From: Pristiophorus japonicus
Lineage: Eukaryota
NCBI RefSeq assembly: GCF_044704955.1
Contig: NC_091978.1
Coordinates: 375,100,001 to 375,164,000 of the forward strand
DNA length: 64,000 bases
Direction: 5' to 3'
In this document: positions 19,073 to 57,800 of the stretch, piece by piece
Numbering within the stretch: position 1 is the stretch's first letter
Layout: the number at the start of each line of letters is the position of its first letter
Made by a program: the position numbers and the translations under genes
Notes under the pieces: model-generated
The model's input: only the letters and a program-made list of their open reading frames with translations
Database searches by the model: none
Told to the model about the DNA's origin: nothing

Positions 19073-19508
19073 GGCGCCTGCCGCCTGCCGCCGCTTTCTT
19101 CTCCAGAGGGCAAACCAGACCGGAAGTCGCAAACCGCTTCCGGGAGCCGGGGAGCCGAGCTGCCGCGCCTGCGCGACAACCCGCCAATGCAGACCCGGAA
19201 CACGAACCCTGCTCCTCCCCGCGCTCGCTGCTCGGCCCGCGGAGATTTCCGGCACTTTCTGTTTCTATTTCAGATCCCAGTCTCCGCGGGATTGGCCTTT
19301 TGTTGTTTGGGTTTGGCGGTTGGCAGTAGCTTCCGGTTCGTTGGCAGCAGTCATTCTGGGAACGTGACCTCGGCTCAACCTTGCAACCCGGAGCTAAACC
19401 CCACCCTGACTTCCGGCGCTGTCCCATGACGTTTGTTGCCTTTGTTGTTGCTCCGGGGTTCGCGGAGCGGGAGCGGGGCTGATCCTGCGGCCGGCCGGCG
19501 GGCGGGCC
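19073..19508. promoter_or_regulatory. Bidirectional CpG-island promoter shared by the AhpD-like gene and SMIM19
   Basis: GC/CpG-rich, between two divergent ATGs. ETS/GABP-type CCGGAAGT at 19120-19127, ACTTCCGG at 19409-19416, further TTCCGG cores; CCAAT at 19184 and ATTGG at 19291. Confidence 0.8.
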
Positions 19509-22500
19509 ATGGCCGGTTACGGGGCGATGGCGGGCGGCGCGGGGATGGACTACACGGTGCACGAGGCCTGGAACGACGCCACCAACGTTTATCTGATCGC
19601 CATCTTGCTCAGCCTCGGCCTCTTGGTGTACGCGCGCCGGTGGGTAGCCCCGCCCATTGCTCCGCCCCCGGGCGCCTAGCCCCGCCCATTACCCCGCCCC
19701 TGGCACATCGCCCCGCCTCGGGACCGAGCCCCGCCCATAGCCCTGCCCCCGGGCGCCTAGCCCCGCCCATTGCTCCGCCCCCGGGCACCGAGCCCCGCCC
19801 ATTGCCCTGCCCCCGGGCACCGAGCCCCGCCCATAGCCCTGCCCCTGGGCACCTAGCCCCGCCCATTGCCCTGCCCCTGGGCACCTAGCCCTGCCCCTGG
19901 GTACCGAGCCCCGCCCATTGCCCTGCCCCTGGGCACTGAGCCCCGCCCATTACCCCGCCCCTGGCACATCGCCCCGCCTCGGGACCGAGCACCGCCCATA
20001 GCCCTGCCCCTGGCACATTGCTTCGCCTCTGGGCACTTAGCTCCGCCCCGGGCACCGAGGCCCGCCCATTAACCTGGCTCCGATCCCCGCTCATTGCTCC
20101 GCCCCCTTGCACCAAGCCCCGCCCTCTCAAACGTTAATCTCAATTGTGTATTTTAGGAATAAGAGGAAGATTATGAGAATATTTACGGTGCCTCCCACGG
20201 ATCCAACGCCTGAGCCCAACTTTTATGACAACTTACAGAAAGTTCGCTTACGACAGCAGTTGGACATGTACTACATCGGTGAGTCTGTTCTGCCAGTAAC
20301 GGTGTGGCAAAAATGTTTGAACTTTGAAAAGTCGAATCCCAGTGTATTTTGGTTAATTAATTTAATGGAAGAAATCATCTTTTATTTTTTTTAATTCATT
20401 CTCGGGATGTGGGAGTCGCTGGCGAGGCCGGCCTTTATTGCCCATCCCTAATTGCCCTGAAAAGGTGGTGAGCCTCCTTCTTGGACCAAGAAAGACCAAC
20501 CTGCATTTTTACAGTACCTTTCACAACCTCAGGATATCCAAAGCGACTTACAGCCAATGAATTATTTTTTGAAATGTAGTCACTGTTGTAATATAGAAAA
20601 TATGGCAGACATTTTACGACAGCAAACTCCCACAAACAGCAATGTGATAATGACCAGATAATCTGTTTTAGATTGAGGGATAAATATTGGCCAGGACACG
20701 CCAAAAGGCATTCGATAAGGTGCCACACAAAAGGTTACTGCAGAAGATAAAGGTACGCGGAGTCAGAGGAAATGTATTAGCATGGATAGAGAATTGGCTG
20801 GCGAACAGAAAGCAGAGAGTCGGGATAAATGGGTCCTTTTCAGGTTGGAAATCGGTGGTTAGTGGTGTGCCACAGGGATCGGTGCTGGGACCACAACTGT
20901 TTACAATATACATCGATGACCTGGAAGAGGGGACAGAGTGTAGTGTAACAAAATTTGCAGATGACACAATGATTAGTGGGAAAGCGGGTTGTGTAGAGGA
21001 CACAGAGAGGTTGCAAAGAGATTTAGATAGGTTAAGCGAATGGGCTAAGGTTTGGCAGATGGAATACGATGTCGGAAAGTGTGAGGTCATCCGCCTTGGA
21101 AAAAAACAGTAAAAGGGAATATTATTTGAATGGGGAGAAATTACAACATGCTGAGGTGCAGAGGGACCTGGGGGTCCTTGTGCATGAAACTCTTTTTGGA
21201 GTTTATCTGTAAAACATAAATTATTAAACCGTGCCACCCGACCTGGATGACACACCAGACATTTACAAGGCCCTTTTTTTTTTCTTTTTTTCTTTTTTTT
21301 TGTGTTTTTCTTTTTTTTGTGGTTTTTTTTGGGGGCACTAAAATCACATTTTTTCCCCAGTGCCCCCTATAAAAGGGAAGGGGGACACTAAAAGCACCGG
21401 CAATTAAAACAAATTAAACTTTAAAACGTAAAATCAAATTAAAATTTGGTTGCCGGGCGTGATGATGCACTCCAGTCCCTCCGGTGCCCACCTCTCGCGG
21501 AAGGCCGCGAGCGTACCGGTGGACACCGCGTGCTCCATCTCCAAGGACACCCTGGACCGGATGTAAGAGCGGAAGAGAGGCAGGCAGTCAGGTTGAATGA
21601 CCCTCCTTGTGCATGAATCCCCCCCAAAAAAAGTTTGTTTGCAGGTGCAGCAAGTAATCAGGAAGGCGAATGAAATGTTGGCCTTCATTGCGAGAGGGAT
21701 GGAGTACAAAAGCAGGGAAGTTCTGCTGCAACTGTATAGGGTATTGGTGAGGCCACACCTGGAGTACTGCGTGCAGTTTTGGTCACCTTACTTAAGGAAG
21801 GATATACTAGCTTTGGAGGGGGTACAGAGACGATTCACGAGGCTGATTCTGGAGATGAGGGGGTTACCTTATGATGATAGATTGAGTAGACTGGGTCTTT
21901 ACTCGTTGGAGTTCAGAAGGATGAGGGGCGATCTTATAGAAACATTTAAAATAATGAAAGAGATAGACAAGATAGGGGCAGAGAGGTTGTTTCCACTGGT
22001 CGGGGAGACTAGAACTAGGGGGCACAGCCTCAAAATACGGGGGAGCCAATTTAAAACCGAGTTGAGAAGGAATTTCTTCTCCCAGAGGGTTGTGAATCTG
22101 TGGAATTCTCTGCCCAAGGAAGCAGTTGAGGCTAGCTCATTGAATGTATTCAAATCACAGATAGATAGATTTTTAACCAATAAGGGAATTAAGGGTTACG
22201 GGGAGCGGGCGGGTAAGTGGAGCTGAGTCCACGACCAGATCAGCCATGATCTTGTTGAATGGCGGAGCAGGCTCGAGGGGCTAGATGGCCTACTCCTGTT
22301 CCTAATTCTTATGTTCTTATGTAACTCCCCTGCCCTTCTTTGAAATAGAGCCATGGGATCTTTTACGTCCACTTGAGAGGGCAGACGGGGCCTCAGTTAA
22401 CGGTACAACTGAGTGATTCACTCGACCCCTTCAGATGGCATTTAAACTCAATCACTTGGTGTGAGACTGGAGTCACTATAGGCCCAGACCGGGTAAGGAC

Positions 22501-29518: not shown

Positions 29519-29886
29519 GAAACAATTTCAGACAAATCTTCATTCGAGGCAGAGACCTCATCGGGAATGACCTGAGAACAGGCCACAAAGCCTCAAGCAT
29601 GCAATTTACATCAAATGTAACTTCATCATGAAGACACAGCCATCAATGGTGGAGCGATTGAAATTGTGGATGTGTAAGAGGCCAGAATTGGAGGTGTGCA
29701 GAGATCTCAGAGGGCTGGAGGACATAGGGAGGGGCAAGGCCATGGAGGGATTTGAAAACAAGGATGAGAATTTTAAAATTGAGGTCGTGCCGGACCTGGA
29801 GCCAAGCTTGGTGTCACCTGATCTCTACTTCCTCATTTACCTTGTCTTCTATTTTTAACCATGGTGGAGCCCGTCTCTGCCCCTGC

Positions 29887-32800
29887 TGTCATGTATTCAA
29901 CCAGCATTGTAACCCATGTATAAACTGACCTAAGTTGTACACTGTGAGAACACTGACCACTAGGTGGGAGACACTCCTAACCTGGACCTTCAGGTATAAA
30001 AGGGGAAGCTCCACCCACCTTCATCACTTGAGTGCTAAGGAATAAAGGACAGGTCACAGACTGACCTTCTCTCAAGCATGGGCCTCGTGTGCATTTATAC
30101 TGTGTAGTAAGGACGTATCAATGGCGACAAGAAACTGGGATTTAAACCACGCGAGCATGGCCACTAGCAGAACAGACGAGAGGTACTGTGTTAACGAATG
30201 GTTGGGACAGAGATTCAACATTGTTAAAGCAGCACACAGTTCTCCAGGCAGACAAGGGCAGTCAGGCATGCCCCAACATGTAGTCGAACCCAGAGGGGGA
30301 GTTCGACAGAGACAATGGCAAGCTGAACAGCGATTCACACCATTGCAAGGGACAATGCGGCCAGTAATGGGGCCATCAACACCTGTTAATGGTGCACTCA
30401 AGGACAATAACGGGCAGTCAGGGACGATCGACTGGCAAGGGACCTTTTGTTTCAAACCGCAACTCATGCTGGAGGCATGGAGGCACACATTCAGCCGGAG
30501 TTTGCAGAGATGTGCAAAATACCTGCAGATATTGCAGAAATGGACACTGGGGGAAATCGCTGGAAGCTGAAGTTCAGCGAGTTCATGTGGAGCACGAATA
30601 CAGTTCATACACCAGGATGCCACCGATAATGATGAAAGTGCTCCTCAATGGCATCCCAGTATCAATGGAGTTAGACACAGGTGCCAGCCAGTCTCTGATG
30701 GGTATCAAACAGTTTGAAAGGTTGTGGGCATCCAAGGCCAGGAGGCCAAAATTATCGCCGATTGAAGCACAGCTTCGGACTTACACAAAGCAGATCATTC
30801 CGGTGCTAGGCAGCGCCACGGTAGTCGTGACCCACAAAGATTCGGAGAACAGGTTGCCACTCTGGATTGTCCTAGGGGACGGTCCCGCACTACTGGGGAG
30901 GAGTTGGCTTGCTGTCATGAACTGGAAATGGGGCGATGTCAATGCAATTTCCTCTGTGGAGCGAGTATCATGCTCACAGGTCCTGGACAAATTTGACTCA
31001 TTATTTCAACCCGGCATCGGCACTTTCATGGGGACCAAGGTAGTGATTCACATAAACCCGGACGCCAGACCAGTACACCACAAGGCCAGAGCGGTGCCGT
31101 ACGTGATGCGGGAAAAGATAGAAGGCGAATTGGACCGCCTGTTGAGGGAAGGCATCATCTCGCCAGTCGAATTCAGTGACTGGGCGAGCCCGATTGTGCC
31201 GGTGCTCAAGGCGGATGGGTTCGGTCAGGATATGTGGCGATTACAAGGCCACCATCAATCGGGTGTCACTCCAAGACCAGTACCCGCTACCGAGAGCGGA
31301 GGACCTCTTTGCGACGCTATCCGGTGGCAAACTTTTTTCAAAATTGGACCTGACCTCAGCTTACATGACCCAGGAGCTGGCGAGTGAGTCGAAGAAGCTG
31401 ACCACCATCACGACACACAAGGGGTTGTTTGAGTACAACAGATGTCCGTTCAGGATTCGCTCGATCGCCGCGATCTTCCAACGAAATATGGAAAGCCTCC
31501 TCAAGTCGATTCCAGGGACGGTGGTTTTTCAGGACGACATCCTCATTACGGGTTACGATACTGAAGAACACCTCCACAACCTGGAGGAGGTGCTACGCAG
31601 ACTGGACCGGGTAGGGCTGCGACTGAAAAAGGCGAAGTGCGTCTTCCTAGCTCCAGAGGTAGAATTCCTGGGGATGAGGGTAGCAGCAGACGGGATCAGC
31701 CCTACTGCATCCAAGACAGAAGCGATCCAGAGAGCACCCAGACCCCGTAACACAACGGAGCTGCGTTCGTTCCTGGGGCTCCTGAACTATTTTGGTAACT
31801 TTCTTCCCAAATTGAGCACGCTGCTAGAGCCGCTACACGTGCTCCTACGCAAAGGTCGCGAATGGGTCTAGGGGGACAGCCAGGAAAGGGCTTTTAATAG
31901 AGCACGCAATTTGTTATGTTCCAACAATCTGTTAACGCTATATGACCCATGTAAGAAACTTGTTTTAACGTGCGATGCGTCGTCCTATGGTGTCGGGTGT
32001 GTGTTGCAGCATGTCAATGTCAAGGGTCAGTTACAGCCGGTAGCTTATGCCTCCAGGAGTCTGTCCCAGGCAGAAAGGGGCTACGGGATGGTAGAAAAGG
32101 AGGCGCTCGCATGTGTATATGCGGTAAAGAAAATGCACCAGTACCTGTTTGGCAGGAAATTTGAGCTGGAGACAGATCACAAATCCCTAACGTCCCTTTT
32201 GGCCGACAACAAGGCCATAAATGCAAACGCATCGGCCCGCATACAGAGGTGGGCACTCACGTTAGCTGCCTATGACTACACAATTCGGCACAGACCGGGC
32301 ACCGAAAACTGCGCTTATGCACTCAGCAGGCTCCCACTAGCCACCACTGAGGGGGCTACCGAGCATGGTGCTGAGATGGTCATGGCTGTTGAAGCTTTCG
32401 GAAGCGAAGGCTCACCTGTGACAGCCCGTCAGATTAAAGTCTGGACAAATAGAGACCCGCTATTGTCTCTAGTCAAGAAATGTGTCCTGAATGGGGACTG
32501 GGCAGCCACGTACAGGGCATGCCCTGAGGAATTTAAACCATTTCACAGGTTCAGGCCGATTGCCTACTGTGGAGAAACCGCGTAGTCATGCCCCAGATGG
32601 GCAGAGAGGTGTTCATCAGAGAACTCCACAATGGGCACCCGGGCATTGTCACGATGAAGGCAATTGCCAGGTCACACGTTTGGTGGCCAGGGATAGACGC
32701 AGATCTGGAACTTTGTGTTCGCAGATGTAACATGTGTGCCCAGCTGGGCCATGCGCCCAGGGAAGCCCCCCTTAGCCCCTAGCCATGGCCCGCCAAACCT

Positions 32801-33990
32801 TGGTCATGCATCCATGTGGACTACGCAGGTCCTTTCATGGGGAAAATATTTTTGGTTGTAGTAGACGCCTACTCCAAATGGATCGAGTGTGACATTTTAA
32901 ATTCAAGCACATCCTCTGCCACGGTAGAAAGTCTATGGGCAATGTTCGCCGCCCACGGTCTACCGGACATCTTGGTCAGTGACAATGGCCCGTGCTTCAC
33001 AAGCACTGAATTCCAGGACTTCATGGCAGGCAATGGAATTAACCATGTTAGAACGGCACCGTTCAAGCCGGCCTCAAACGGCCAGGCAGAACGAGCAGTG
33101 CAGATAATCAAACAGGGGATGCTCAGATTACAAGGGAGTTCCCTACAAACCCGCTTATCACGCCTCCTGTTGGTCAATAGATCCCGACCACACTTGCTCA
33201 CAGGAGTTCCACCCGCAGAGCTACTAATGAAAAGGACGCTCAAAACCCGATTATCCCTTATACACCCCACCATGAAAGAAATTGTCGAGAGCAGGCGCCA
33301 GTCACAATATGACTACCATGACAGGAATGCGAGGGCGCGATGTATTGATGTAAATGATCCTGTTTTTGTCCTCAACTACGCTGCAGGGCCCAAATGGCTC
33401 GCAGGCACTGTGGTTGCCAAACAGGGAAATAGGATTCTGGTAGTTAAACTTACCAATGGACAAATCTGCCGCAAACATGTGGATCAAACAAAAAGGAGGT
33501 TCAGCAACCCCATAGAAGAAGCAGAGGAAGAACACGATATAGAGTTCACTCCACCACAGGTGACCGAACACCGGAACCAAAGGGAGGAGAGCCCAGTCAC
33601 TGTGGGCAGTCGGGACAGGCCTGAGGCACTGCAAACAGCAGACACTCAGGCCAGTGCCCAACAACCGGAGCCCCAACTCAGGCGCTCTACAAGGGAGCGT
33701 AAACCACCAGAGAGACTCAACCTGTGATCCCAATAAGACTTTGGGGGGGGAGGTGATGTCATGTATTCAACCAGCATTGTAACCCGAGTATAAACTGACC
33801 TAAGTTGTACACCGTGAGAACACTGACCACTAGGTGGGAGACACTCCTAACCTGGACCTTCAGGTATAAAAGGGGAAGCTCCACCCACCTTCATCACTTG
33901 AGTGCTAAGGAATAAAGGACAGGTCACAGACTGACCTTCTCTCAAGCATGGGCCTGGTGTGCATTTATACTGTGTAGTAAGGACGTATCA
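29887..33990 (+). mobile_element. Gypsy/Ty3 (Mag-like) LTR retrotransposon with paired 234-bp LTRs, gag mostly deleted, pol disrupted
   Basis: LTRs 29887-30120 and 33757-33990 (TG..CA, TATAAA, AATAAA, 4 differences), TGGCGAC PBS and purine-rich PPT. Domain order PR (LDTGA), RT (FQDD), RNaseH (CDAS, ETDH), IN (H..H/C..C, DYAGP, SDNG). TSD CCTGC/CCGGC. Confidence 0.95.
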
Positions 33991-34234
33991 CCGGCCTCAC
34001 CCTCATCCATGCCTTTTTTACCTCCAGACCAATGTTCCCTCTAATTCTGTTTGGCCCTGCGGGCTGGGCGAGCCATTCACCGTACGACGCATACGCAGGC
34101 GCTGTCTGCACGGGTTCCCTGGAGAGCCAGGCAGCTTACGGGGAACGTTGTTCCAGACCCGACTATTCCAACGCTTTCCTGGCCCGTCTCCCATTTACCT
34201 CCCTCCATAAACTTGAGCCCATCCAAAACCCTGT

Positions 34235-34679
34235 GCCCCGTGTCCTAACTCGCACCGAGTCCCACTCACCCATCACCCCCTGTGCTCACTGCCCCGTGTC
34301 CTAACTCGCACCGAGTCCCACTTACCCATCACCCCCTGTGTTCACTGCCCCGTGTCCTAACTCGCACCAAGTCCCGCTCACCCATCACCCCCTGTGCTCA
34401 CTGCCCCGTGTCCTAACTCGCACCGAGTCCCACTTACCCATCACCCCGTGTTCACTGCCCCGTGTCCTAACTCGCACCAAGTCCCGCTCACCCATCACCC
34501 CCTGTGTTCACTGCCCCGTGTCCTAACTCGCACCGAGTCCCACTCACCCATCACCCCCTGTGCTCGCTGCCCATGTCCTAACTCGCACCAAGTCCCGCTC
34601 ACCCATCACCCCCTGTGCTCACTGCCCCGTGTCCTAACTTGCACCGAGTCCCACTCACCCATCACCCCCTGTGCTCACT
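34235..34679. repeat. 56-bp L2-derived tandem repeat x8
   Basis: Unit GCCCCGTGTCCTAACTCGCACCGAGTCCCACTCACCCATCACCCCCTGTGCTCACT within an L2 fragment (~33991-34895). Confidence 0.9.
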
Positions 34680-34929
34680 GAATTACATTGACTCCAGGTC
34701 CGGCAATGCCTCGATTTCAAAATTCTCATCCTTGTTTTCATATCCCTCCATGGCCTCAGCCCCTCCCTCTCTCTGTAACCTCCCCAGCCCTACAACCCTC
34801 CGAGATGTCTGCAATCCTCCAATACTGGCCTCTTGTGCATTGCCGATTTCCATCGCTCCACCAATGGCGGCTGTGTCTTCAACTGTCTGGGCCCCTATTC
34901 TTTCATAGCAAAATATTAATACCTAAGTC

Positions 34930-36394: not shown

Positions 36395-37620
36395 GTCATC
36401 ATAGGCAGTCCCTTGGAATCGAGGAAGACTTGCTTCCACTCCTGAAGTGAGTTTTCTGGTGGCTGAACAATCAATATGAGAGCCACAGACTCTGTCACAG
36501 GTGGGACAGATAGTCGTCGAGGGAAGGGGTGTGTAGGACTGGTTTACCGCACGCTTGACCTCGTCATGCTCTCGGCGAGATTTAAAGAGCTCAGCTCCCT
36601 CCCGGATGCACTTCCTCCACTTCGGGTGGTCTTCGGCCAAGGACTCCCAGGTGTCAGTGGTGATGTCGCACTTTATCAGAGAGGCTTTGAGGGTGTCCTT
36701 GTAATGTTTATGCTGCCCACCTTTGGCTCGTTTGCCATGAAGGAGCTCCGTATAGAGCATTTGCTTTGGGAGTCTCGTGTCTGGCATGCAAACTATGTGG
36801 CCTGCCCAGCGGAGCTGATCGAGTGTGGTCAGTGCTTCAATACTGGGGATGTTAGCCTGGACGAGGACACTGATGTTGGTGCACCTGTCCTCCCAGGGGA
36901 TTTGCAGGATCTTGCGGAGACATTGTTGGTGATATATCTCCAGCAACTTGAGATGTCTTTTGTACATCGTCCATGCCTCAGGTCCATACAGGAGGGCGGG
37001 TATTTCTACAGTCCTGCACCATGAGCTTGGTGGTAGATTTGAGGGCCTGGTCTTCAAACACTCTTTTCCTCAGACGTCCGAAGGCTGCACTGGAGGCGAT
37101 GTTGAATCTCCGCATCAATGTCTGCTCTTGTTGATAGGAGGCTCCCGAGGTTTGGGAAATGGTCCACGTTGTCCAGGGCTGCGCCGTGGATCTTGATGAC
37201 TGGGGGGCAGTGCTGTGTGGCAAGGACAGGCTGGTGGGGGATCTTTGTCTTACGGATGTTTAACGTAAGACCCATACTTTCGTGCACCTCAGTAAATATA
37301 TTGACTATGTCCTGGAGTTCAGCCTCTGATTGTGCGCAGACGCAGGCGTCGTCCGCGTACTGTAGCTCAACGACAGGTTGGGGCGGTCTTGGACCTGGCC
37401 TGGAGACGGCGAAGGTTGAACAGGTTCCCACTGGTTCTGTAGTTTAGTTCCACTCCAGCGGGGAACTTGTTGAGGGTGAGATGGAGCATGGCAGCGAGGA
37501 AGATTGAGAAGAAGGTTGGGGCGATGACGCAGCCCTGTTTGACCCCGGTCCAGACGTGGATTGGGTCTGTAATGGACCCGTGGGTTAGGATCACGGCCTT
37601 CATGTCGTCATGTAGACTGG
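36395..37620 (-). mobile_element. RTE-clade LINE 3' part
   Basis: [26 protein letters not shown]; (GAT)n tail. Confidence 0.88.
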
Positions 37621-37644: not shown

Positions 37645-38225
37645 ATGGGTTGCAAGGACACCCTCAAAGCCTCCCTGATAAAGTGCAACATCCCCACCAA
37701 CACCTGGGAGTCCCTGGCCAAAGACCGCCCTAAGTGGAGGAAGTGCATCCGGGAGGACGCTGAGCACCTCGAGTCTCATCGCCGAGAGCATGCAGAAACC
37801 AAGCGCAGGCAGCGGAAGGAGCGTGCGGCAAACCAGTCCCACCCACCCCTTCCCTCAACCACTCTCTGTCCCACCCTCCCCTCAAACACTCTCTGTCCCA
37901 CCCTCCCCTCCCCTCAACCACTCTCTGTCCCACCCTCCCCTCCCCTCAACCACTGTCTGTCCCACCCTCCCCTCCCCTCAACCACTGTCTGTCCCACCCT
38001 CCCCTCCCCTCAACCACTCTCTGTCCCACCCTCCCCTTCCCTCAACCACTCTCTGTCCCACCCTCCCCTTCCCTCAAACACTCTCTGTCCCACCCTCCCC
38101 TCCCCTCAAACACTCTGTCCCCCTGTGACAGACTGTGGTTCCTGTATTGGGCTGTTCAGCCACCTGAGAGCCCATGCTCAGAGTGGAAGCAGGTGTGCCT
38201 CGATCCCGAGGGACTGCCTGTGATG
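37645..38225 (+). mobile_element. RTE 3' end with expanded 29-bp repeat (~37776-38125, ~12 units)
   Basis: [21 protein letters not shown] peptide; gggactgcctgtgatg tail. Confidence 0.88.
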
Positions 38226-38575
38226 GTTAGCTTCCCGCTCTTCCCGGCAGGCGGCGCTGGCGGTGCGGGTAGTCGGTGTTGGTGCGGCCTCCGGCCAGGA
38301 GGGGACGCTGTTGGTGGGGGTGTTGGTGCGGCCTCCGGCCGGCAGTGGGCGGTGTTGCGGGAGGTCTCCGGGCGGTGCCGGCAGGGGGCGGTGTTGCGGA
38401 AGGTCTCCGGGCAGTGCCGGTAGGGGGCGGTGTTGCGGGAGGTCTCCGGGAGGGGGCGCTGTTGCTGGTGCTGGGGGTGTTGGTGCGGCCTCCGGACGGC
38501 AGTGGGCGGTGTTGCTGGAGGGCTCCGGGCGGTGCGGTACTGGGTGTCGGGTCCGGGGGATTGCGGTAGCGCCCG

Positions 38576-38684
38576 ATGGCGAGCGGGAGCGGGAGCGGCG
38601 GGACGCTGACGGCTCTGTGGGCCGAGGTGAATCGGTGCGGGCAGACCGCCGACTACAGCCGGGCCCTGAAACCGCTCAACAAAA
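38576..38684 (+). CDS. SRP72: SRP72 exon 1
   Basis: [36 protein letters not shown], donor A|GTAAGG. Confidence 0.9.
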
Positions 38685-41600
38685 GTAAGGCCTGGGACTG
38701 GGAGTGGCCCCGCACCGCACCGCGGCCTCCGGGCGGCAGGTCCCAGAGAGGCCGGGGGCCGGGCGGAGCGGGAGCGGGGCCCGTAGGGCACGGGCCCGGG
38801 GCCCCGGTGTTTATTGCCCCATGGACGGGCCGGAGGAGCTGCCGGGGCCTGGTTGCCGGGGGAGGCCGGGGGTGCGGGCCGGAGGCGGCCGGTCAGGGTG
38901 CAGCCCTGAGGCTGAGAGATAACCCTGGGTCACCAGAATGAAAGACTTGCATTTCTGTAGCGCCTTCACAATCCCAGGGCGTCCCAAAGCGCCTCTCAGC
39001 CAATGAGGAGCATTTGGAAAGTGGAGTGTTGTAATGTGGGAAACGTGGCAGTCTATTTCACACAGCAAGATCCCACACAGCATCACCATATTCACACAGT
39101 CCCTCGGGATCGAGGCACACCTGCTTCCACTCTGAGCATGGGCTCTCAGGTGGCTGAACAGCCCAATACAGGAACCACAGTCTGTCACAGGGGGACAGAG
39201 AGTGTTTGAGGGAAGGGGAGGGTGGGACAGACAGTGGTTGAGGGAAGGGGAGGGTGGGACAGACAGTGGTTGAGGGAAGGGGAGGGTGGGACAGACAGTG
39301 GTTGAGGGAAGGGGAGGGTGGGACAGACAGTGGTTGAGGGAAGGAGAGGGTGGGACAGACAGTGGTTGAGGGAAGGGGAGGGTGGGACAGAGAGTGGTTG
39401 AGGGAAGGGGAGGGTGGGACAGAGTGGTTGAGGGAAGGGGAGGGTGGGACAGAGAGTGGTTGAGGGAAGGGGAGGGTGGGACAGAGAGTGGTTGAGGGAA
39501 GGGGAGGGTGGGACAGACAGTGGTTGAGGGAAGGGGAGGGTGGGACAGACAGTGGTTGAGGGAAGGGGAGGGTGGGACAGAGAGTGGTTGAGGGAAGGGG
39601 TAGGTGGGACAGACAGTGTTTGAGGGAAGGGGAGGATGGGACAGGCAGTGGTTGAGGGAAGGGGAGGGTGGGACAGACAGTGGTTGAGGGAAGGGGAGGG
39701 TGGGACAGAGAGTGGTTGAGGGAAGGGGAGGGTGGGACAGACAGTGGTTGAGGGAAGGGGAGGGTGGGACAGACAGTGGTTGAGGGAAGGAGAGGGTGGG
39801 ACAGACAGTGGTTGAGGGAAGGGGAGGGTGGGACAGAGAGTGGTTGAGGGAAGGGGAGGGTGGGACAGAGTGGTTGAGGGAAGGGGAGGGTGGGACAGAG
39901 AGTGGTTGAGGGAAGGGGAGGGTGGGACAGAGAGTGGTTGAGGGAAGGGGAGGGTGGGACAGACAGTGGTTGAGGGAAGGGGAGGGTGGGACAGACAGTG
40001 GTTGAGGGAAGGGGAGGGTGGGACAGAGAGTGGTTGAGGGAAGGGGTAGGTGGGACAGACAGTGTTTGAGGGAAGGGGAGGGTGGGACAGGCAGTGGTTG
40101 AGGGAAGGGGAGGGTGGGACAGACAGTGGTTGAGGGAAGGGGAGGGTGGGACAGAGAGTGGTTGAGGGAAGGGGAGGGTGGGACAGAGAGTGGTTGAGGG
40201 AAGGGGAGGGTGGGACAGAGAGTGGTTGAGGGAAGGGGAGGGTGGGACAGACAGTGGTTGAGGGAAGGGGAGGGTGGGACAGAGAGTGGTTGAGGGAAGG
40301 GGAGGGTGGGACAGAGAGTGGTTGAGGGAAGGGGAGGGTGGGACAGACAGTGGTTGAGGGAAGGGGAGGGTGGGACAGAGAGTGGTTGAGGGAAGGGGAG
40401 GGTGGGACAGAGAGTGGTTGAGGGAAGGGGAGGGTGGGACAGAGAGTGGTTGAGGGAAGGGGAGGGTGGGACAGACAGTGGTTGAGGGAAGGGGAGGGTG
40501 GGACAGACAGTGGTTGAGGGAAGGGGAGGGTGGGACAGAGAGTGGTTGAGGGAAGGGGTAGGTGGGACAGAGAGTGTTTGAGGGAAGGGGAGGGTGGGAC
40601 AGGCAGTGGTTGAGGGAAGGGGAGGGTGGGACAGACAGTGGTTGAGGGAAGGGGAGGGTGGGACAGACAGTGGTTGAGGGAAGGGGAGGGTGGGACAGAG
40701 AGTGGTTGAGGGAAGGGGAGGGTGGGACAGAGAGTGGTTGAGGGAAGGGGAGGGTGGGACAGAGAGTGGTTGAGGGAAGGGGAGGGTGGGACAGACAGTG
40801 GTTGAGGGAAGGGGAGGGTGGGACAGAGAGTGGTTGAGGGAAGGGGAGGGTGGGACAGACAGTGGTTGAGGGAAGGGGAGGGTGGGACAGAGAATGCTTG
40901 AGGGAAGGGGAGGGTGGGACAGACAGTGGTTGAGGGAAGGGGAGGGTGGGACAGAGAATGCTTGAGGGAAGGGGAGGGTGGGACAGACAGTGGTTGAGGG
41001 AAGGGTGGGACAGAGAGTGGTTGAGGGAAGAGGAGGGTGGGACAGAGAGTGGTTGAGGGAAGGGGAGGGTGGGACAGAGAGTGGTTGAGGGAAGGGGAGG
41101 GTGGGACAGACAGTGGTTGAGGGAAGGGGAGGGTGGGACAGACAGTGGTTGAGGGAAGGGGAGGGTGGGACAGACAGTGGTTGAGGGAAGGGGAGGGTGG
41201 GACAGAGAGTGGTTGAGGGAAGGGGAGGGTGGGACAGACAGTGGTTGAGGGAAGGGGAGGGTGGGACAGAGAATGCTTGAGGGAAGGGGAGGGTGGGACA
41301 GACAGTGGTTGAGGGAAGGGGAGGGTGGGACAGAGAATGCTTGAGGGAAGGGGAGGGTGGGACAGACAGTGGTTGAGGGAAGGGTGGGACAGAGAGTGGT
41401 TGAGGGAAGAGGAGGGTGGGACAGAGAGTGGTTGAGGGAAGGGGAGGGTGGGACAGAGAGTGGTTGAGGGAAGGGGAGGGTGGGACAGACAGTGGTTGAG
41501 GGAAGGGGAGGGTGGGACAGAGAGTGGTTGAGGGAAGGGGAGGGTGGGACAGAGAGTGGTTGAGGGAAGGGGAGGGTGGGACAGAGTGGTTGAGGGAAGG

Positions 41601-44600
41601 GGAGGGTGGGACAGACAGTGGTTGAGGGAAGGGGAGGGTAGGACAGAGAGTGGTTGAGGGAAGGGGAGGGTGGGACAGACAGTGGTTGAGGGAAGGGGAG
41701 GGTGGGACAGAGAGTGGTTGAGGGAAGGGGAGGGTGGGACAGAGAGTGGTTGAGGGAAGGGGAGGGTGGGACAGGTTTGGCGCACGCTCCTTCCGCTGCC
41801 TGCGCTTGGTTTCTGCATGCTCTCGGTGATGAGACTCGAGGTGCTCAGCGCCCTCCCGGATGCACTTCCTCCACTTAAGGTGGTCTTTGGCCAGGGACTC
41901 CCAGGTGTCGGTGGGGATGTTGCACTTTATCAGGGAGGCTTTGAGGGTGGTCCTTGTAACGTTTCCTCTGCCCGTCCTCTGCCAATCTTTGGCTCATTTG
42001 CCGTGAAGGAATTCCAATTAGACTTCTTGCTTTGGGAGTCTCGTGTCAGGCATGCGAACAATGTGGCCCGCCCAACAGAGCTGGTCGAGTGCTTCGATGC
42101 TGGGGATGTTGGCCTAATCGAGGACGCTAACGTTGGTGCATTTGTCCTCCCAGTGGATTTGCAAGATCTTGAGGAGGCAGCATTGGTGGTACTTCTCCAG
42201 TGTTTTGAGATGTCTGCTGAGCCACATAGGAGGGTGGGTATCACTACTGCCCTGTAGACCATGAGCTTGGTGCCAGATTTGAGGTCGTGGTCTTCAAAAA
42301 CTCCCTTCCTCAGACGACCGGAGGCTGCGCTGGCGCACTGGAGGCGTGTTGGATCTCGTCGTCTATGTCTGCCCTTGCTGATAATGACCAGATAATCTTT
42401 TTTTGTTATGTTGATTGAGAGATAGATATTGGCCCCAGGACACCAGGATTAACTCTCTCCTCCCCCCCTCCCCCCTAATCTTTGAAATAGTGCCATGGGA
42501 TCTTTTCTGTCCACCTGAGAGAGCAGACAGAGCCTCGGTTTAACATCTCATCCGAAAGACGGCACCTCCGACAATGCAGCACTCCCTCAGTACTGCCCCT
42601 CTGACAGTGCAGCACTCCCTCAGTACTGCCCCTCCGACAGTGCAGCACTCCCTCAGTGCAGCACTCCCTCAGTACTGCCCCTCCGACAGTGCAATACTCC
42701 CTCAGGACTGCCCCTCCGACAGTGCAGCACTTCCTCAGTCATTATCATAGGCAGTCCCTTGAAACGAGGCTGACTTGCTTCCACGCCAAAAAGGGGATGA
42801 GTTAATAGATGTTTCAATGATGGACCTAATATTCCAGGTCCTGAGCTGCATCCTGAAGGGTGGAAGATGCCTGTGGGTGGATTTTTTTAATGTGGGCTGG
42901 CCGTTGCATACCAGCCACCACACGGGCTTGACAGAGCTAGGTCTTGGTCCAGTGGCAAGGGTTAACCAAGACAACTGGAGACCAGCTCTGCTGCACGGAC
43001 CTAGTGCACACATATATCGCAGTGTGGGCTGGGCCCGTACTGCCCCTGGGCCCTCGCCTCTCCTGGGCCCCGAACGCACGCCTCTCCTGGGCCCCGATCA
43101 CATCCCTCTACAGTCTCTCGCCGCTTCTACACCCCGACCTCGCCACTCTTGCTGTACCTGCCCACGCTCCAATCACCGACCTGGACCTTGATGTCGTCAC
43201 TTTTCGCTGCCATCACCCTCCTACACCAGCTTGCACTGCTCCCTGAAGTGGTATGCCTCCGCGCTGCTCCCGGGCCGCCACTCACCGCTCCTTTTATGGC
43301 CCCGACCTGCCGCTGGTGTTCTCATGCAAGTCGGGCCTCCGTGCTCCCTCAGTACTGCCCCTCCGACAGTGCGGCGCTCCCTCAGTACTGCCCCTCCGAC
43401 AGTGCGCCGCTCCCTCAGTACTGCCCCTCCGACAGTGCGGCACTCCCTCAGTACTGCCCCTCCGACAGTGCAGCGTTCCCTCAGTACTGCCCCTCCGATA
43501 GTGCGGCGTTCCCTCAGTACTGCCCCTCCAACAGTGCAGCACTCCCTCAGTACTGCCCCTCCGACAGTGCGGCGCTCCCTCAGTACTGCCCCTCCGACAG
43601 TGCGGCACTCCCTCAGTACTGCCCCTCCGACAGTGCGGTGTTCCCTCAGTACTGCCCCTCTGACAGTGCGGCGCTCCCTCAGTACTGCCCCTCCGACAGT
43701 GCGGCGTTCCCTCAGTACTGCCCCTCTGACAGTGCGGCGCTCCCTCAGTACCGCCCCTCCGACAGTGCGGCGCTCCCTTAGTACTGCCCCTCTGACAGTG
43801 CGCCGTTCCCTCAGTACTACCCCTCTGACAATACAGTGCTCCCTCAGTTCTGACCCTCCGACAGTGCAACGCTCCCTCAGTACTGCACTGGAGTGTCAGC
43901 CTGGATTTTGTGCTCAAGTCTCTGGAGTGGACTTGAACCCAGAATCTTCTGACTCAAATGAAAGTACTACCCACTGAGCCACAGCTGACACCATGGTGAC
44001 AATCGTGTTCGATTGAAAAATTCCAAGGTGAAGGAAAGGCATTTTGGGAGTGGGACAGGTTGTGAACTTTACCCGGGACAAGGTTAAGTTTGAGTGCATC
44101 GACCTGAAGGATGATTGGAGGGTGTTGGTGGAATGTGGAGGGGTTGAACCTGAGTCTGTGTCAGAACAGAATGCAGTTTTAGAGAGAGAGGTGCATTTAT
44201 CAAGATTTGAAGAAAAGTCCAGCAAAAAGGTTAGTGTTCTTGTAATGAGAACTAACACGATGGAAGAGTGATGGAAAGGAAGCTCCATGGAAGCTCAGGG
44301 AGACTGTTTAGGCAAGAGATGTGAAGGAGCAGCTTCCGGAGAGGCAGGGAAGCAATGGGTTTCAATAGTTGCATTTCGCAGCTTTGATAGTGGGTTCGTA
44401 AAACTGTTGAGCAGACATAAAGCTGGCATGGCATAGCAGACTGGGCGAGAGGCCACGTGTGATGTGGCCATTGTTTACAACAACAACTTGTATTTATATA
44501 GCGCCTTTAACATAGTGAAACGTCCCAAGGCGCTTCACAGGAGGATTATGTGATAAAGAATTGACACCGAGCTGCAAAAGTAGAAATTAGCGCAGAGGTC

Positions 44601-47600
44601 AAAGAGGTTGGTTTTAAGCAGTGTCATGAAGGAGGAAAGAGAGGTAGAGAGGCGGAGAGGTTTAGGGGGGGAGTTCCAGAGCTTGGGGCCCAGTCCTTAC
44701 TACTAGGGGGATCAAGGGGTATGGCGAGAAAGCAGGAATGGGATACTGAAGTTGCATGTTCAGCCATGAACTCATTGAATGGCAGTGCAGGCTAGAAGGA
44801 CCGAATGGCCTACTCCTGCACCTATTTTCTATGTTTCTATGCAACAGAAGGCACGACCACCAATGGCTGAGTGATTATAATCAGGCTTGCTCAGGGGGGC
44901 AGAATTAGAGCACGGGGCTGATGGGTGAGCGGGACTCGGTGCGAGTTAGGACACGGGGCACAGGGGGTGATGGGTGAGCGGGACACGGGCAGCCGAGTTT
45001 TGGATCATCTCGGGTCGAATGTGGGAGGCCAGCCAGGAGTGGGATGAAGAGTCCAGTCTAGAGATAAAAAAAGGCCTGGATGAGGGCATCAGCAGCGGAT
45101 GAGCTGAGGCAAGGACGGAGGTGGAAGTAGGCGGTCTTAGTTACGTTGTGGCTATGTGGCCGGAAGCTCATTTCAGGGTCAAATATGACACTTAGGTTGC
45201 GAACAGTCTGGTTCAGCCCCAGACAGGAGTTATGGAGAGGGATGGAGGCAGTGGCTGGGGAACGGAGTTTGTGGTGGGGACCGAAAACAAAGGCTTCGGT
45301 CTTCCCAATATTAAATTGGAGAAAATTTCTGTTCGTCCAGAACTGGATGTCAGACAAGTAGTCTGACAATTTAGAGACCATGGAGGGGTCGAGAGAACTG
45401 GGTGTCATCAGCGTACATGTGGAAACTGACGGCATGTTTCCAGATGATGTCGCCACAGTAGAAGGGCAGGCACGACTAAATCAAGCTGTGGTACGGAGTC
45501 TGACAGAAGGGTATGAAATCTTACTGGATGGCTAGTATAAAATCACCGACAGACAGAAATATCAGAAGAAGAATAAAAACACAAGTTAAGGTTTGGAAAG
45601 GCAGCGAATAATTTGCTAATTTAGTCTCTGTTTGTTGACCTATACTGTGGAACTAAATAAATCTAGTTTAGAATAAAAACAGAAAATGCTGGGAACACTC
45701 AGCTTCTGTGGAGAGAGAAAGCGAGTTAAGGTTCCAGGTCGCTGACCTTTGGTTTTAGAGTGTGGTATGAGCACTATGCAGAGATCGATAATGAATGCTC
45801 AGGGGAGAGTAAGAATTACGGTTGGAGTTGAGGGAAATTAGTTGAACTACTAGGCCAGTCAGGGTTAAAGTCAAGCTGTTCAGGGTCATTAAGTGTTGAT
45901 AGATTCATTGGAACTTTTCAATTATTTGTCAAGGAATAGAGAATGTAAAATTAGGAAAATGAGAAGACAGCAATGAATTTAGTGAAATTAAGGAAGTATA
46001 TTTTTAGCCACAGGAGAATTTTAGAATAGCTGTTTCTAACTGTGTTGGTTTGATTTTCGTCTAGTTCATTTGTCAATGTGATGCTAAACTTTAATAGAAT
46101 TAAACTGTGTGAAAATTCAGCCCGTGTCTCTTTCTCTGCAGTACTCCAAGATGACAAGGATGATGTCACCGCTCTGCATTGTAAAGTGGTCTGTCTGGTC
46201 CACAACGGAAGTTTTAAGGAAGCTCTTAATATAATCCATACTCATACTAAGGTGCTCGCCAGGTAAGATTCAAATAATCACACCATCACTCACATGGGCT
46301 GGAAACCTGCTCAATAAGTAGATTCCATTATTGCACATGTATATTACGGCCAAATAGCTGGGCTCAATGTTTCTGGTTGACATTTATTAAGCAGTACTAA
46401 AGAAAGAACTTGCATTTCTATAGCGCCTTTGATAATATCAGGAGATCCTAAGGCGCTTTACAGCCAATGAAGTACTTTTGGAGTAGTCACTGTTGTAATG
46501 TGAGAAATATCCATACATTACTGGTTTAATTGTGGTGTCATGTGACATTGCTGATATCCAGACTTCATTAATCAAAAGATATGTCACGATTGCTTTGTTT
46601 TGCACCAAGAGAATCCTGCATTTTTAATTCAGTATGTTTAGAAACCGTGGTTTGAAAAGGGTGCGAAATGATTGTGAATACAACAGTTTAAAAACAATTC
46701 CTGTCATTGAGTCCATCAAAACAAACTTTGTTTTGCCCTGACTTGCTTTTCAGTGAAGCAATTGCCTTTGAAAAGGCTTACTGTGAATACAGACTGAACC
46801 GAATAGAAACAGCATTGAAGACCATTGAAAGTGTTGACCAGCAGACTGACAAATTAAAGGAACTTTATGGCCAAGTGGTATGTACAGATTTCCTTGTCTG
46901 TTAACTGTTCTCTCGCTGGCAGTGCTGCTAAAAATACCTACCTTTTAAATCCAAGATCTCGATAAAGTAAGTTACATCTACAGAGGGCTGTAGTATAAAG
47001 AGGTTCTAAAATGCTGGTATAACTTGTCAGCGACCTGTGGTTCTAGTTCCTAACTATGTATTATTGGCCTTGAGAAGGTGATTCCAGGTGTCAGGAGTTT
47101 AAATTAGGCGGAAAGATTAAGGAAGTTATTGTCTTTGGAAAAAGATTTTTAGGAGACCCCTTTTGAAGTTTTCAAGATTACTAATGGACCTATCATGACG
47201 TTAGTCACGGGATGGATTTCTCAGACTTTGGTGGTGCAGACCCAGGCTGACGCCAGGGTGGGATTTCTCTTCCTCATATTTAAATCCCTTCATGCCCTCT
47301 CCCTCCCTATCTTTGTCGCCTCCTCCTGCCCTCCAACCTCCCACAAACTCCCCGTCCCTCTGACTGGCATCTTGTGCATCGCCCACCACTGGCAGTCTTG
47401 CCTTCAACCACCTAACCACTTGCTCGGAGCTCATTGATGTGGAAATTGATAAATGAATGGTAAATGTAATAGGACAATGCATCGATAAGATATATATCGA
47501 TACCCATAATAAATACGCATATTGAGTGATTAGGAAAGCAATATGCTCGGTGGTAGGTGTTACTTGAGCCAATCAGAGAAGAGTATCGTGTTTTGTGCTG

Positions 47601-54800: not shown

Positions 54801-57800
54801 CAGCAAGCTCCCCGCTGAAGTGGAACTTAAATTACAGGACAAACGGGAATCTGTTCAATCTCCGCCGCCTCCAAACCAGTTCCAAGGTCGTCCTATCCTC
54901 CGTCATCGAACTACAGTACGCAGACAACGCTTGCGTCTGCGCACACTCGGAGGCTGAGCTCCAAGCTATCGTCATCACCTTCACCGAGGCGTACAAGAGC
55001 ATGGGCCTTACACTAAACATCAGTAAGACAAAGATCCTCTACCAACCTGCCCCCGCCACACAGTACTGCCCCCCCGATTATCAAAATCCACGACGAGGCC
55101 TTGGACAACGTGGACCATTTCCCATACCTCGGGAGCCTACTGTCAGCAAGGGCAGACATCGTTGACGAGGTCCAACACTGCCTTCAGTGCGCCAGCACAG
55201 CCTTCGGTCGCCTGAGGAAGAGAGTGTTTGAAGACGAGGACCTCAAATCCGGTACCAGTCTCACGGTCTACAAAGCAGTGGTGATACACGCCCTCCTATA
55301 TGGCTCAGAGGCATGGACTATATACAGCAGGTACCTCAAAACACTGGAGAAGTACCACCAGCGCTGCCTCCGCAAGATCCTGCAAATCCATAGACGTACC
55401 AACATCAGCGTTCTCACTCAAGCCAGCATCGAAGCATTGACCACGCCCGATCAGCTCCGCTGGACGGGCCACATCATCTGCATGCCTGACACGAGACTCC
55501 CAAAACAAGCGCTCTACTCGGAGCTCAGACACGGCAAGTAAGCCCAAGATGGGCAGAGGTGACGCTTCAAGGACACCCTTAAACCTCCTTTGGAAAAATA
55601 GCAACATCCCCACCGGCACCTGGGAATCCCTAGCCCAAGACCACTCAAATTGGAGGAAGAGCATCCTGGAAGGCGCTAAGCACCTTGAGTCTCTACGCCG
55701 AGAGCAAGCTGAAGCCAAGTGTCGACAGCGGAAGGAGTGTGTGGCAAACCAGCACCCCGCCCACCCTTTCCTTTAACCACCGTCTGCCCCACCTGAGAGA
55801 GAGACTGTAGGGCCCGCATTGAACTCTTCAGTCACCTGAGAACTCATTTTTAGTGTGGAAGCAAGTCATCCTCGACCTCGAGGGACTGCATGTGATGATC
55901 TCTGTCCCTCTCGCTCTATCTCTTGCAGTCCCTATCTGTCTTCCCAGTCTCTCGCTTCCCTTTGAATCCTCGATCTTCCACCACCAGCTCCCCTGACCTC
56001 AGCACGAAGCCACGTCCTGACTAGGCATTGCACATGTGTGGCTCCGATATACCGGCAGTCGGTGCTGGGAGGCGAATAATCCGAGCGTGGGGGATTTTCC
56101 TGCTCAAAGGTCAAGGGAGAAAACCAATCCCCTTCCCGGCACAAAAGCCCATCAACCATCAGAACATAGACTTCAAGAGCTGCAATTGCAATCGGCTGTG
56201 AGGTTGCAAGACTCACAAATGAGTCTGTCTGGGTTCCTGGGGTCCCTCCCCCGCTCCAGTTACTGTCCAGTTCTCTGCACGGCATTTCAGGTCAACGGCT
56301 CGCGGCCTGGGGGATGGACGGCTCGCGGCCTGGGGGATGGACGGCTCGCGGCCTGGGGGATGGACGGCTCGCGGCCTGGGGGATGGACGGCTCGCGGCCT
56401 GGGGGATGGACGGCTCGCGGCCTGGGGGATGGACGGCTCGCGGCCTGGGGGATGGACGGCTCGCGGCCTGGGGGATGGACGGCTCGCGGCCTGGGGGATG
56501 GACGGCTCGCGGCCTGGGGGATGGACGGCTCGCGGCCTGGGGGATGGACGGCTCGCGGCCTGGGGGATGGACGGAGCGCACGCACCTTAGCAGGAACAGT
56601 GAGTTCAGTGTTCAGCTCAATTCACAACTCCTCTAATAATGACAAAAGCAAAATACTGCGGATGCTGGAATCTGAAAAGAAGCAGAAAATGCTGGACCCC
56701 TCAGTGGATCATCTGTGAAGAGATTTCCAGCATTTTCTGTTTCTCTTCCATCATGTCCTTGGACTTAGCTAAATCCTGGCTTGGGCTGAATTGGCAGATA
56801 CTATTTGTGCCATTTAATGCCTGGTAACGACCATCTCCAACTCGAGAAATCCCAAGTGTCTCATTCGGACCTTCAGTAGCACCAGCATTGCTGAGTGTTA
56901 GGCTTGAACCTAGCTGGGTGCATCCCCAACTCCAGGGACTTGAGAACAAAAAAATGTGGCCACTGTCGACCAGAAGCTTAACTGCACTAGTCGTATCACG
57001 AGCAGGACAGGTGCTGGGTACTCCTGACTCCTCAAAACCGCTACAGGGTTCGAGTCAGGAGAATGATGGAATACTCACCACTTCAAAGAAAAAAAAGACT
57101 GACTTGGATTTATATAACGCCTTTCATGGCGACCAGACGTCTCAAAGTGCTTTACAGCCAATTATGTACTTTTGGAGTGTCATCATCATAGGCAGTCCCT
57201 TGGAATCGAGGAAAACATGCTTTCACTCTTAAAATGAATTCTTAGATGGCTGAACAGTCCAATACGAGAACCACAGTCCCTGTCACATGTGGGACAGACA
57301 GTGGTTGAAGGAAAGGGGAGGGTGGGACTGGTTTGTCGCACGCTCCTTCCGCTGCCTGCGCTTGGTTTCTGCATGCTCTCGGCGATGAGACTCGAGGTGC
57401 TCAGCGCCCTCCCGGATGCACTTCCTCCACTTAGGGCGGTCTTTGGCCAGGGACTCCCAGGTGTCAGTGGGAATGTTGCACTTTATCAGGGAGGCTTTGA
57501 GGGTGTCCTTGTAACGTTTCCTCTGCCCACCTTTGGCTCGTTTGCCTTGAAGAAGTTCTGAGTCGAGCGCTTGCTTTGGGAGTCTCGTGTCTGGGGCATG
57601 CGGACAATGTGGCCTGCCCAGCGGAGCTGATCAAGTGTGGTCAGTGCTTCAATGCTGGGGATGTTAGCCTGGTCGAGGATGCTAACATTGGTGCGTCTGT
57701 CCTCCCAGGGGATTTGTAGGCTCTTGCGGAGACATCGTTGGTGGTATTTATCCAGCGACTTGAGGTGTCTACTGTACATGGTCCATGTCTCTGAGCCATA

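Follow-up and report, generated by a model that had tools for sequence, protein, structure and literature searches.

How do two oppositely oriented transposon remnants come to hold an identical sequence on both sides of the start of a gene, while the rest of the two remnants differs? This question is raised by the SRP72 gene of Pristiophorus japonicus in a stretch of 64,000 nucleotides (assembly GCF_044704955.1, contig NC_091978.1, positions 375,100,001 to 375,164,000 of the forward strand), which was analysed over its full length and is called the window below; positions are counted from its first letter. The proximal promoter and the first exon of SRP72 occupy the loop between two inverted fragments (arms) of a long interspersed nuclear element (LINE), and the loop-proximal ends (tails) of these arms match perfectly. 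We argue that the identity is probably the outcome of GC-biased, non-allelic, non-crossover conversion between neighbouring dead LINE fragments beside a CpG-island promoter, and that the resulting structure is most likely a neutral by-product and not a switch.

The left tail (38113-38216, + strand) is the exact reverse complement of the right tail (39097-39200, - strand) at 104 of 104 positions, and the pairing in register breaks one base beyond either end. No other exact inverted match in the window is as long, the arrays described below excepted; the next longest, of 70 bp and 57 bp, connect the outer part of the left arm to a copy at 57.3 kb. The loop measures 880 bp, 359 bp of which precede the ATG. 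Over 38131-38216 the two tails differ at 0 of 86 sites, compared with 17/86, 22/85, 21/86 and 24/83 differences from the four other tails in the window (71-80% identity), and ten of their letters occur in none of these four. The outer parts of the arms, which span approximately 37649-37835 and 41773-41960, differ from each other at 7 of 184 sites (three of them CpG) and by one 1-bp insertion, and they have no derived change in common relative to the 57-kb copy. An initial annotation had already reported the exact match, the variants absent from other tails, the 880-bp loop with some 360 bp ahead of the ATG and the divergence further out; a self-comparison of the window confirms the first of these and the other three hold as well. 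Judged by sequence, each arm is made up of three zones, an outer part, an array and a tail, with differing histories.

Both arms are 3' ends of a non-LTR (long terminal repeat) retrotransposon. A neighbouring 5'-truncated copy with an ordinary tail (36397-37620, - strand; the control copy c36) gives matches to the reverse transcriptase family RVT_1 with E-values of 2e-5 and 4e-5, below the curated cut-off. For the relatives of the element, 11 of 20 matches list both an endonuclease and a reverse transcriptase domain in proteins of 980-1106 amino acids, in line with a single open reading frame of approximately 1050 amino acids that encodes an apurinic endonuclease (APE) and the reverse transcriptase. 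We presume that the clade label RTE fits this element. The outer part of the left arm (37649-37835, + strand) is of a young type, with 5 of 190 differences from the 57.3-kb copy. In the tail, short deletions break the frame of the C-terminal zinc finger. The translated variant tail (47 amino acids) was recovered in 0 of 2 candidates among longer proteins and the translated whole left arm (193 amino acids) in 0 of 5257 in a protein search, both of which are weak evidence. A metagenome scan with one tail pattern gave 0 matches, as did a viral scan; one outer-arm pattern gave three metagenome matches, all of them chance 22-letter matches, and Rfam gave 0 matches over 36-44 kb. Two predicted protein isoforms of P. 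japonicus (AP-1 mu-1 and POC1A-like) have ends that hold pieces of the LINE, either by exonisation or as an annotation artefact.

The first line of evidence for copying between the arms is the composition of the right element, which runs on to 42381. Compared with the young 57-kb copy it shows 67/392 differences in 41975-42381 and 7/187 in 41773-41960 (P 2e-6), a step in identity from 82.9% to 96.3%. The best change point lies at 41985 (two-log-likelihood-unit range 41961-42008), and the 5' end of the left arm pairs with 41960, at the edge of this range. Two control pairs showed no such step. The diagnostic sites agree with the division: in the distal part 16 of 27 are of the old and 10 of the young type, and in the proximal part 18 of 19 are young, where part of the calls rest on one old copy only. 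The older and more decayed part (41975-42381, - strand), with a short duplication at its junction, is followed by a young-type segment (41773-41974, - strand), a putative converted tract. Since a copy made from the left arm must stop at the 5' end of that arm, and copying from right to left would have no reason to stop at 41960, the position of the step points to overwriting of an older copy from left to right. A step could equally result from a chimeric insertion or from conversion by a distant donor, but only coincidence would then place it where it is. The idea that the tail is the original old tail of the right arm was rejected, as it carries young-type letters at most of the sites that distinguish old from young (scored by eye on two old and two young copies).

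The second line of evidence is a shift in base composition on the side of the promoter. The private letters of the tail comprise eight AT→GC changes, one GC→AT change and one other, versus AT→GC:GC→AT ratios of 10:15 in the four other tails pooled (P 0.019) and 4:12 in the old part of the right arm (P 0.004). In the outer parts of the arms all changes are GC→AT or neutral; for one site the polarity is uncertain. Change has also been faster in the tail, where 10 letters in 93 are private, versus 2 in 184 for the outer part on the left (P 0.0004), or versus 5 in 184 (P 0.009). The same shift is seen in a sequence that has no partner in the other arm. The right element was inserted within a repeat resembling a short interspersed nuclear element (SINE), which it split into two collinear halves: an old 5' half inside the loop (38937-39085, + strand) and a 3' half on the far side (42379-42596, + strand). 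The private changes of the loop half are 8 AT→GC to 2 GC→AT. Five other halves, counted after three SINE copies of another subfamily had been set aside, give 6:23 (P 0.0015, or 0.008 when two edge columns are omitted). Tail and loop half combined give 16:3. On these small numbers the GC bias looks regional and centred on the promoter.

The arrays between outer part and tail have followed a course of their own. The left minisatellite holds 9 units (37836-38116, + strand; eight G-quadruplex-type motifs on the - strand) and the right one 81 (39192-41774, - strand; internal block duplications and 70 such motifs on the + strand), both seeded by a short internal repeat of the LINE. It had been claimed that the two arms carry the same 29-bp expansion. 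Both arms are indeed expanded, but the unit is 32 bp and the arrays are not homogenised: although they are approximately 95% similar, adjoin the 104 identical bases and have a last-unit variant in common, another variant is present in 5 of the 9 left units and in 0 of the 81 right units. In the right array, multi-unit blocks are duplicated together with the same rare variants, a sign of recent amplification within the array. One DNA contig at 38094-38159 has the 2-letter insertion of the last right-arm unit and otherwise reads as the left arm, which may reflect a last unit that is recombinant or allelic, or else an assembly slip of 2 letters. In addition, a 33-bp minisatellite (42565-42739 and 43343-43886) has grown from the 3' end of the split SINE-like repeat, and is the second case within 2 kb of a transposon end seeding an array.

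The gene in the loop is well defined. The proximal promoter and 5' untranslated region of SRP72 (38217-38575, + strand) lie within a CpG island (38217-38930; GC 0.74, observed/expected CpG 0.84) and contain degenerate 39-bp repeats; the 359 bp ahead of the ATG have no match elsewhere in the window and consist partly of GC-rich tandem duplications. The coding part of exon 1 (38576-38684, + strand) matches SRP72 chains in the PDB (E 4e-8) and is followed by the GT of intron 1 at 38685. Exon 2 (46142-46262, + strand; PDB SRP72 E 2e-18) lies outside the arms, and a later exon at 48711 likewise matches SRP72. Seven sequencing runs contain the stretch, all of one organism. Four are DNA-like and come from a single sample, possibly the one that was assembled; the other three belong to another study. 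Contigs of four of the seven were aligned to 38087-39096 at 90% likeness, leaving out X2, X4 and X7 (share 0.08). In X5 and X6, called RNA-like solely from their splicing, exon 1 ends at 38684 and the contigs then run into exon 2, which fits their loose ends. One X6 contig starts at 38513, 63 bases ahead of the ATG, after 26 letters that match nothing in the window and could represent a different allele, part of an exon further upstream or an artefact. Position 38400 is G in all aligned DNA contigs and A in the window, and low-depth contigs over the 39-bp promoter repeats at 38308-38434 carry 7-9 differences, for which a second haplotype, misplaced repeat units or an assembly error are possible causes.

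The initial annotation had suggested local copying between the arms, and this idea is strengthened by the old-to-young step in the right arm and by the AT→GC bias. We propose the following order of events. An old RTE-like LINE first inserted into the SINE in intron 1 of SRP72, as recorded by the two collinear SINE halves. The present left arm, a young 5'-truncated copy, would then have landed immediately ahead of the promoter, oriented the other way round, a weak flanking duplication suggesting that this was an independent insertion. Repair with the neighbour as template may subsequently have overwritten the 3' part of the old copy up to the end of the homology, where the step is now observed, presumably in the left-to-right direction. 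Afterwards the promoter-proximal tail would have quickly gained mostly AT→GC changes, with at least one later conversion that equalised the two tails; the pattern of changes is directly visible, and GC-biased repair near promoter-associated breaks is its probable mechanism. As the arrays testify, expansion of the G-rich 32-bp unit took place independently in the two arms. A crossover between the arms would leave the promoter and exon 1 facing away from exon 2. SRP72 is an essential gene, and the null alleles created in this way would presumably be purged.

Several observations weigh against this reconstruction. The identity of the 104 bp is weak on its own, with a probability of 0.018 at the divergence of the outer parts (0.04 by Fisher's test) and of 0.10 without CpG sites, and an exact match of 70 bp exists also to a copy 20 kb away. 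The arrays have stayed different, so conversion was not frequent over the whole arm. The comparison of the loop SINE half with its own far half (3 AT→GC to 7 GC→AT) gives only P 0.07, and the controls, few in number and all from within the window, are not uniform: one control tail (4:2) and one control SINE half (9:5) also lean towards GC. Moreover, the tests were picked after the data had been seen. The 5-10-fold faster rate of change in the tail needs a strong bias or break-linked mutagenesis. Finally, the two DNA runs with a contig over the core of the tail give depth ratios of 4.1 and 4.7 relative to the loop contigs, and of 3.0 and 5.3 relative to the median for the other single-locus junction contigs, where a factor of 2 was expected in both comparisons; contig depth is no copy number, but there may be one to three further copies of the core.

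The main alternative is one that we consider possible though improbable. A rare source copy elsewhere, already endowed with the GC-rich tail and the repeat seed, could have given rise to the left arm, after which a single copying event to the right arm and chance identity would suffice, with no repeated conversion and with the GC shift having occurred elsewhere. The core depth of 3-5 times single copy, together with contig breaks at 38130/38131 and 38208, fits one to three further copies, the identity has a probability of only 0.02-0.10, and the arrays are not homogenised. However, the asymmetry between outer parts without a common derived change and a tail with ten is merely moved to the source by this account, and the GC bias of the loop SINE half, which is single-copy, suggests that the cause is local. 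Any additional copies that share the 78 bp unchanged are also more simply seen as offshoots of the SRP72 locus.

That the tail represents the consensus of a common young subfamily, with the arms as independent insertions, is very unlikely. In favour of such a subfamily, the outer parts of young copies in the window show 96% similarity, with exact runs of 57-70 bp. The raw data largely refute it: two DNA runs each yielded a single contig over 38130/38131-38208 (78-79 bp) with 0 differences, at a depth of 22.9 and 37.2, whereas the family contigs (at least 90% likeness) over the same bins sum to a depth of 58,000-133,000. The exact tail was found in none of the 15 X5 and X6 pieces among the matches listed, the variant tail has lost the zinc-finger frame, and such a subfamily does not account for the right-arm step. 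The same data argue against an assembly or polishing artefact, to which we give equally little credence. The DNA runs do come from one sample that is possibly the source of the assembly, bubble popping during contig building could mask one or two differences between the arms, and the loop base 38400 reads differently in all aligned DNA contigs. Yet two runs give the unchanged core at more than twice the depth of the loop, and an artefact does not explain ten private letters, a mosaic right arm and a GC bias. Both outcomes had been named beforehand as checks on the local copying; the common young subfamily was not seen and an artefact is improbable.

Inversion of the promoter and exon 1, or their extrusion as a stem-loop, had also been put forward, and neither finds support. 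The splice from exon 1 to exon 2 places the loop in its present orientation in two other samples, and since the SINE halves are collinear across the right element, the loop has its pre-insertion orientation or has flipped an even number of times. Among the contig pieces listed, none spans the loop and both arms, and contigs cannot phase over a 104-bp repeat. A folding program pairs the two arms, in a calculation without a shuffle control, and the hairpin so predicted follows from any inverted repeat. Extrusion from duplex DNA over a spacer of 880 bp is unlikely. It is hardly credible, then, that the arms form an invertible cassette serving as a regulatory or polymorphic switch, in which the SRP72 promoter and exon 1 are turned round. 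The geometry would permit this: when inverted arms cross over within one chromatid the spacer is inverted, as described in the relevant part of PMC3723533, and the 104 identical bases lie next to arrays of approximately 95% similarity. Nevertheless, the SINE halves mark the orientation as ancestral, both samples have exon 1 spliced to exon 2, a flipped state would part the promoter from the gene body, and in the Y palindrome studied there conversions far outnumber inversions (PMC3723533, same part). The least credible alternative, adenosine-to-inosine (A-to-I) editing of a hairpin RNA that spans both arms and was written back into DNA, would account for 5 or 6 of the 8 AT→GC changes (A>G or T>C) in arms that would pair in read-through RNA, but two of the changes are T>G, the same bias is present in the SINE half, which is unpaired, the listed RNA-like pieces lack the exact tail, and RNA-templated rewriting of chromosomes is rare.

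Beyond conversion between the two arms, a wider proposal can be made only tentatively, and we think it more doubtful than true: the SRP72 promoter may be a long-lived germline hotspot of breaks, at which GC-biased conversion, a roughly 5-10-fold faster change, homogenisation of the arms, growth of minisatellites and measurable null inversions would all go together. If so, relic pairs around CpG islands would form a genome-wide record of promoter recombination in cartilaginous fishes, obtainable from a single assembly. The locus can in any case be read as a conversion record, with an old copy, an overwritten tract that stops at the end of the homology and a GC shift on the promoter side, and with the near and far halves of the split SINE as a built-in control. 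Should the pattern be repeated at other CpG-island promoters, it would provide a way to ask where sharks recombine. Taken alone, it amounts to a single example of a process already known.

Elsewhere in the window, a UPF0697/SMIM19-type gene has its first exon, at 19509, in a second CpG island (18700-20100; GC 0.72, observed/expected 0.75). GC-rich minisatellites with units of 31-32 bp border this island on either side, in an echo of the SRP72 promoter. Further minisatellites with units of 23-56 bp are located at 6189-7612, 8197-8482, 34234-34680 and 56295-56574, those starting at 8197 and 56295 being 99-100% pure. An LTR retrotransposon at 29884-33990 has 237-bp LTRs that are 97.9% alike and encodes reverse transcriptase, RNase H and integrase, in that order and in broken frames; we take it to be Ty3/Gypsy-like by its domain order.

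A literature search on the locus with the SRP72 arms and on the sawshark name, outside subscription papers and supplements, found nothing. The comparison is with systems described in other organisms. Conversion between the arms of human Y palindromes is GC-biased, and inversions are rare relative to conversions, as stated in the part of PMC3723533 on these events; GC-biased arm conversion is likewise described for primate X palindromes in the corresponding part of PMC8981503. The SRP72 locus resembles these palindromes in its inverted arms, its unique spacer and its G/C-favouring changes (8:1 in the tail; the outer arm shows GC→AT instead). It differs from them in scale and uniformity, as palindromes have arms of many kb with more than 99% identity, whereas the SRP72 arms match perfectly over 104 bp, show 96% identity over the outer 184 bp, have unlike arrays and enclose the start of a gene in their spacer. 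An assignment to the palindromes of the sex-chromosome type was accordingly rejected, the arms being short and for the most part not identical (7/184 in the outer parts, 9 versus 81 units in the arrays).

A second point of comparison is the promoter-centred gain of GC where PRDM9 is absent, which in the portion of PMC11323403 devoted to it is a matter of allelic conversion and genome-wide in dogs and birds. In the shark of PMC11323403 the GC content flanking the start site is near the genome average and not generally raised. For cartilaginous fish, the pertinent passages of PMC5519329 describe a partial PRDM9, which in the elephant shark is without SSXRD, with no testis expression found and no rapid evolution of the fingers. 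The SRP72 locus has a similar excess of AT→GC changes beside a CpG-island start site, but differs in being one locus known by its sequence. The arrays invite a third comparison. Unstable G-rich minisatellites occur next to recombination hotspots, and the arrays share with them units with G-runs that expand near a suspected region of breaks and block duplications within the array; here, however, the unit derives from the coding end of a LINE and is present in both arms.

The closest parallel is the non-allelic conversion of Alu elements, for which the sections of PMC6598467 on conversion, citing Kass 1995 and Aleshin & Zhi 2010, describe subfamily mosaics and a raised rate within 10 kb. As in Alu conversion, an old copy has been partly replaced by sequence of a young subfamily with mosaic diagnostic sites, the two copies lie less than 10 kb apart (here with a spacer of 880 bp) and the divergence of the pair is lowered. 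In contrast to Alu, the copies are the 3' ends of a shark LINE; they face each other across a promoter, each arm holds a minisatellite, and the AT→GC shift is strong. With these differences, the SRP72 arms are most likely an instance of an already known process, conversion between neighbouring transposon copies.

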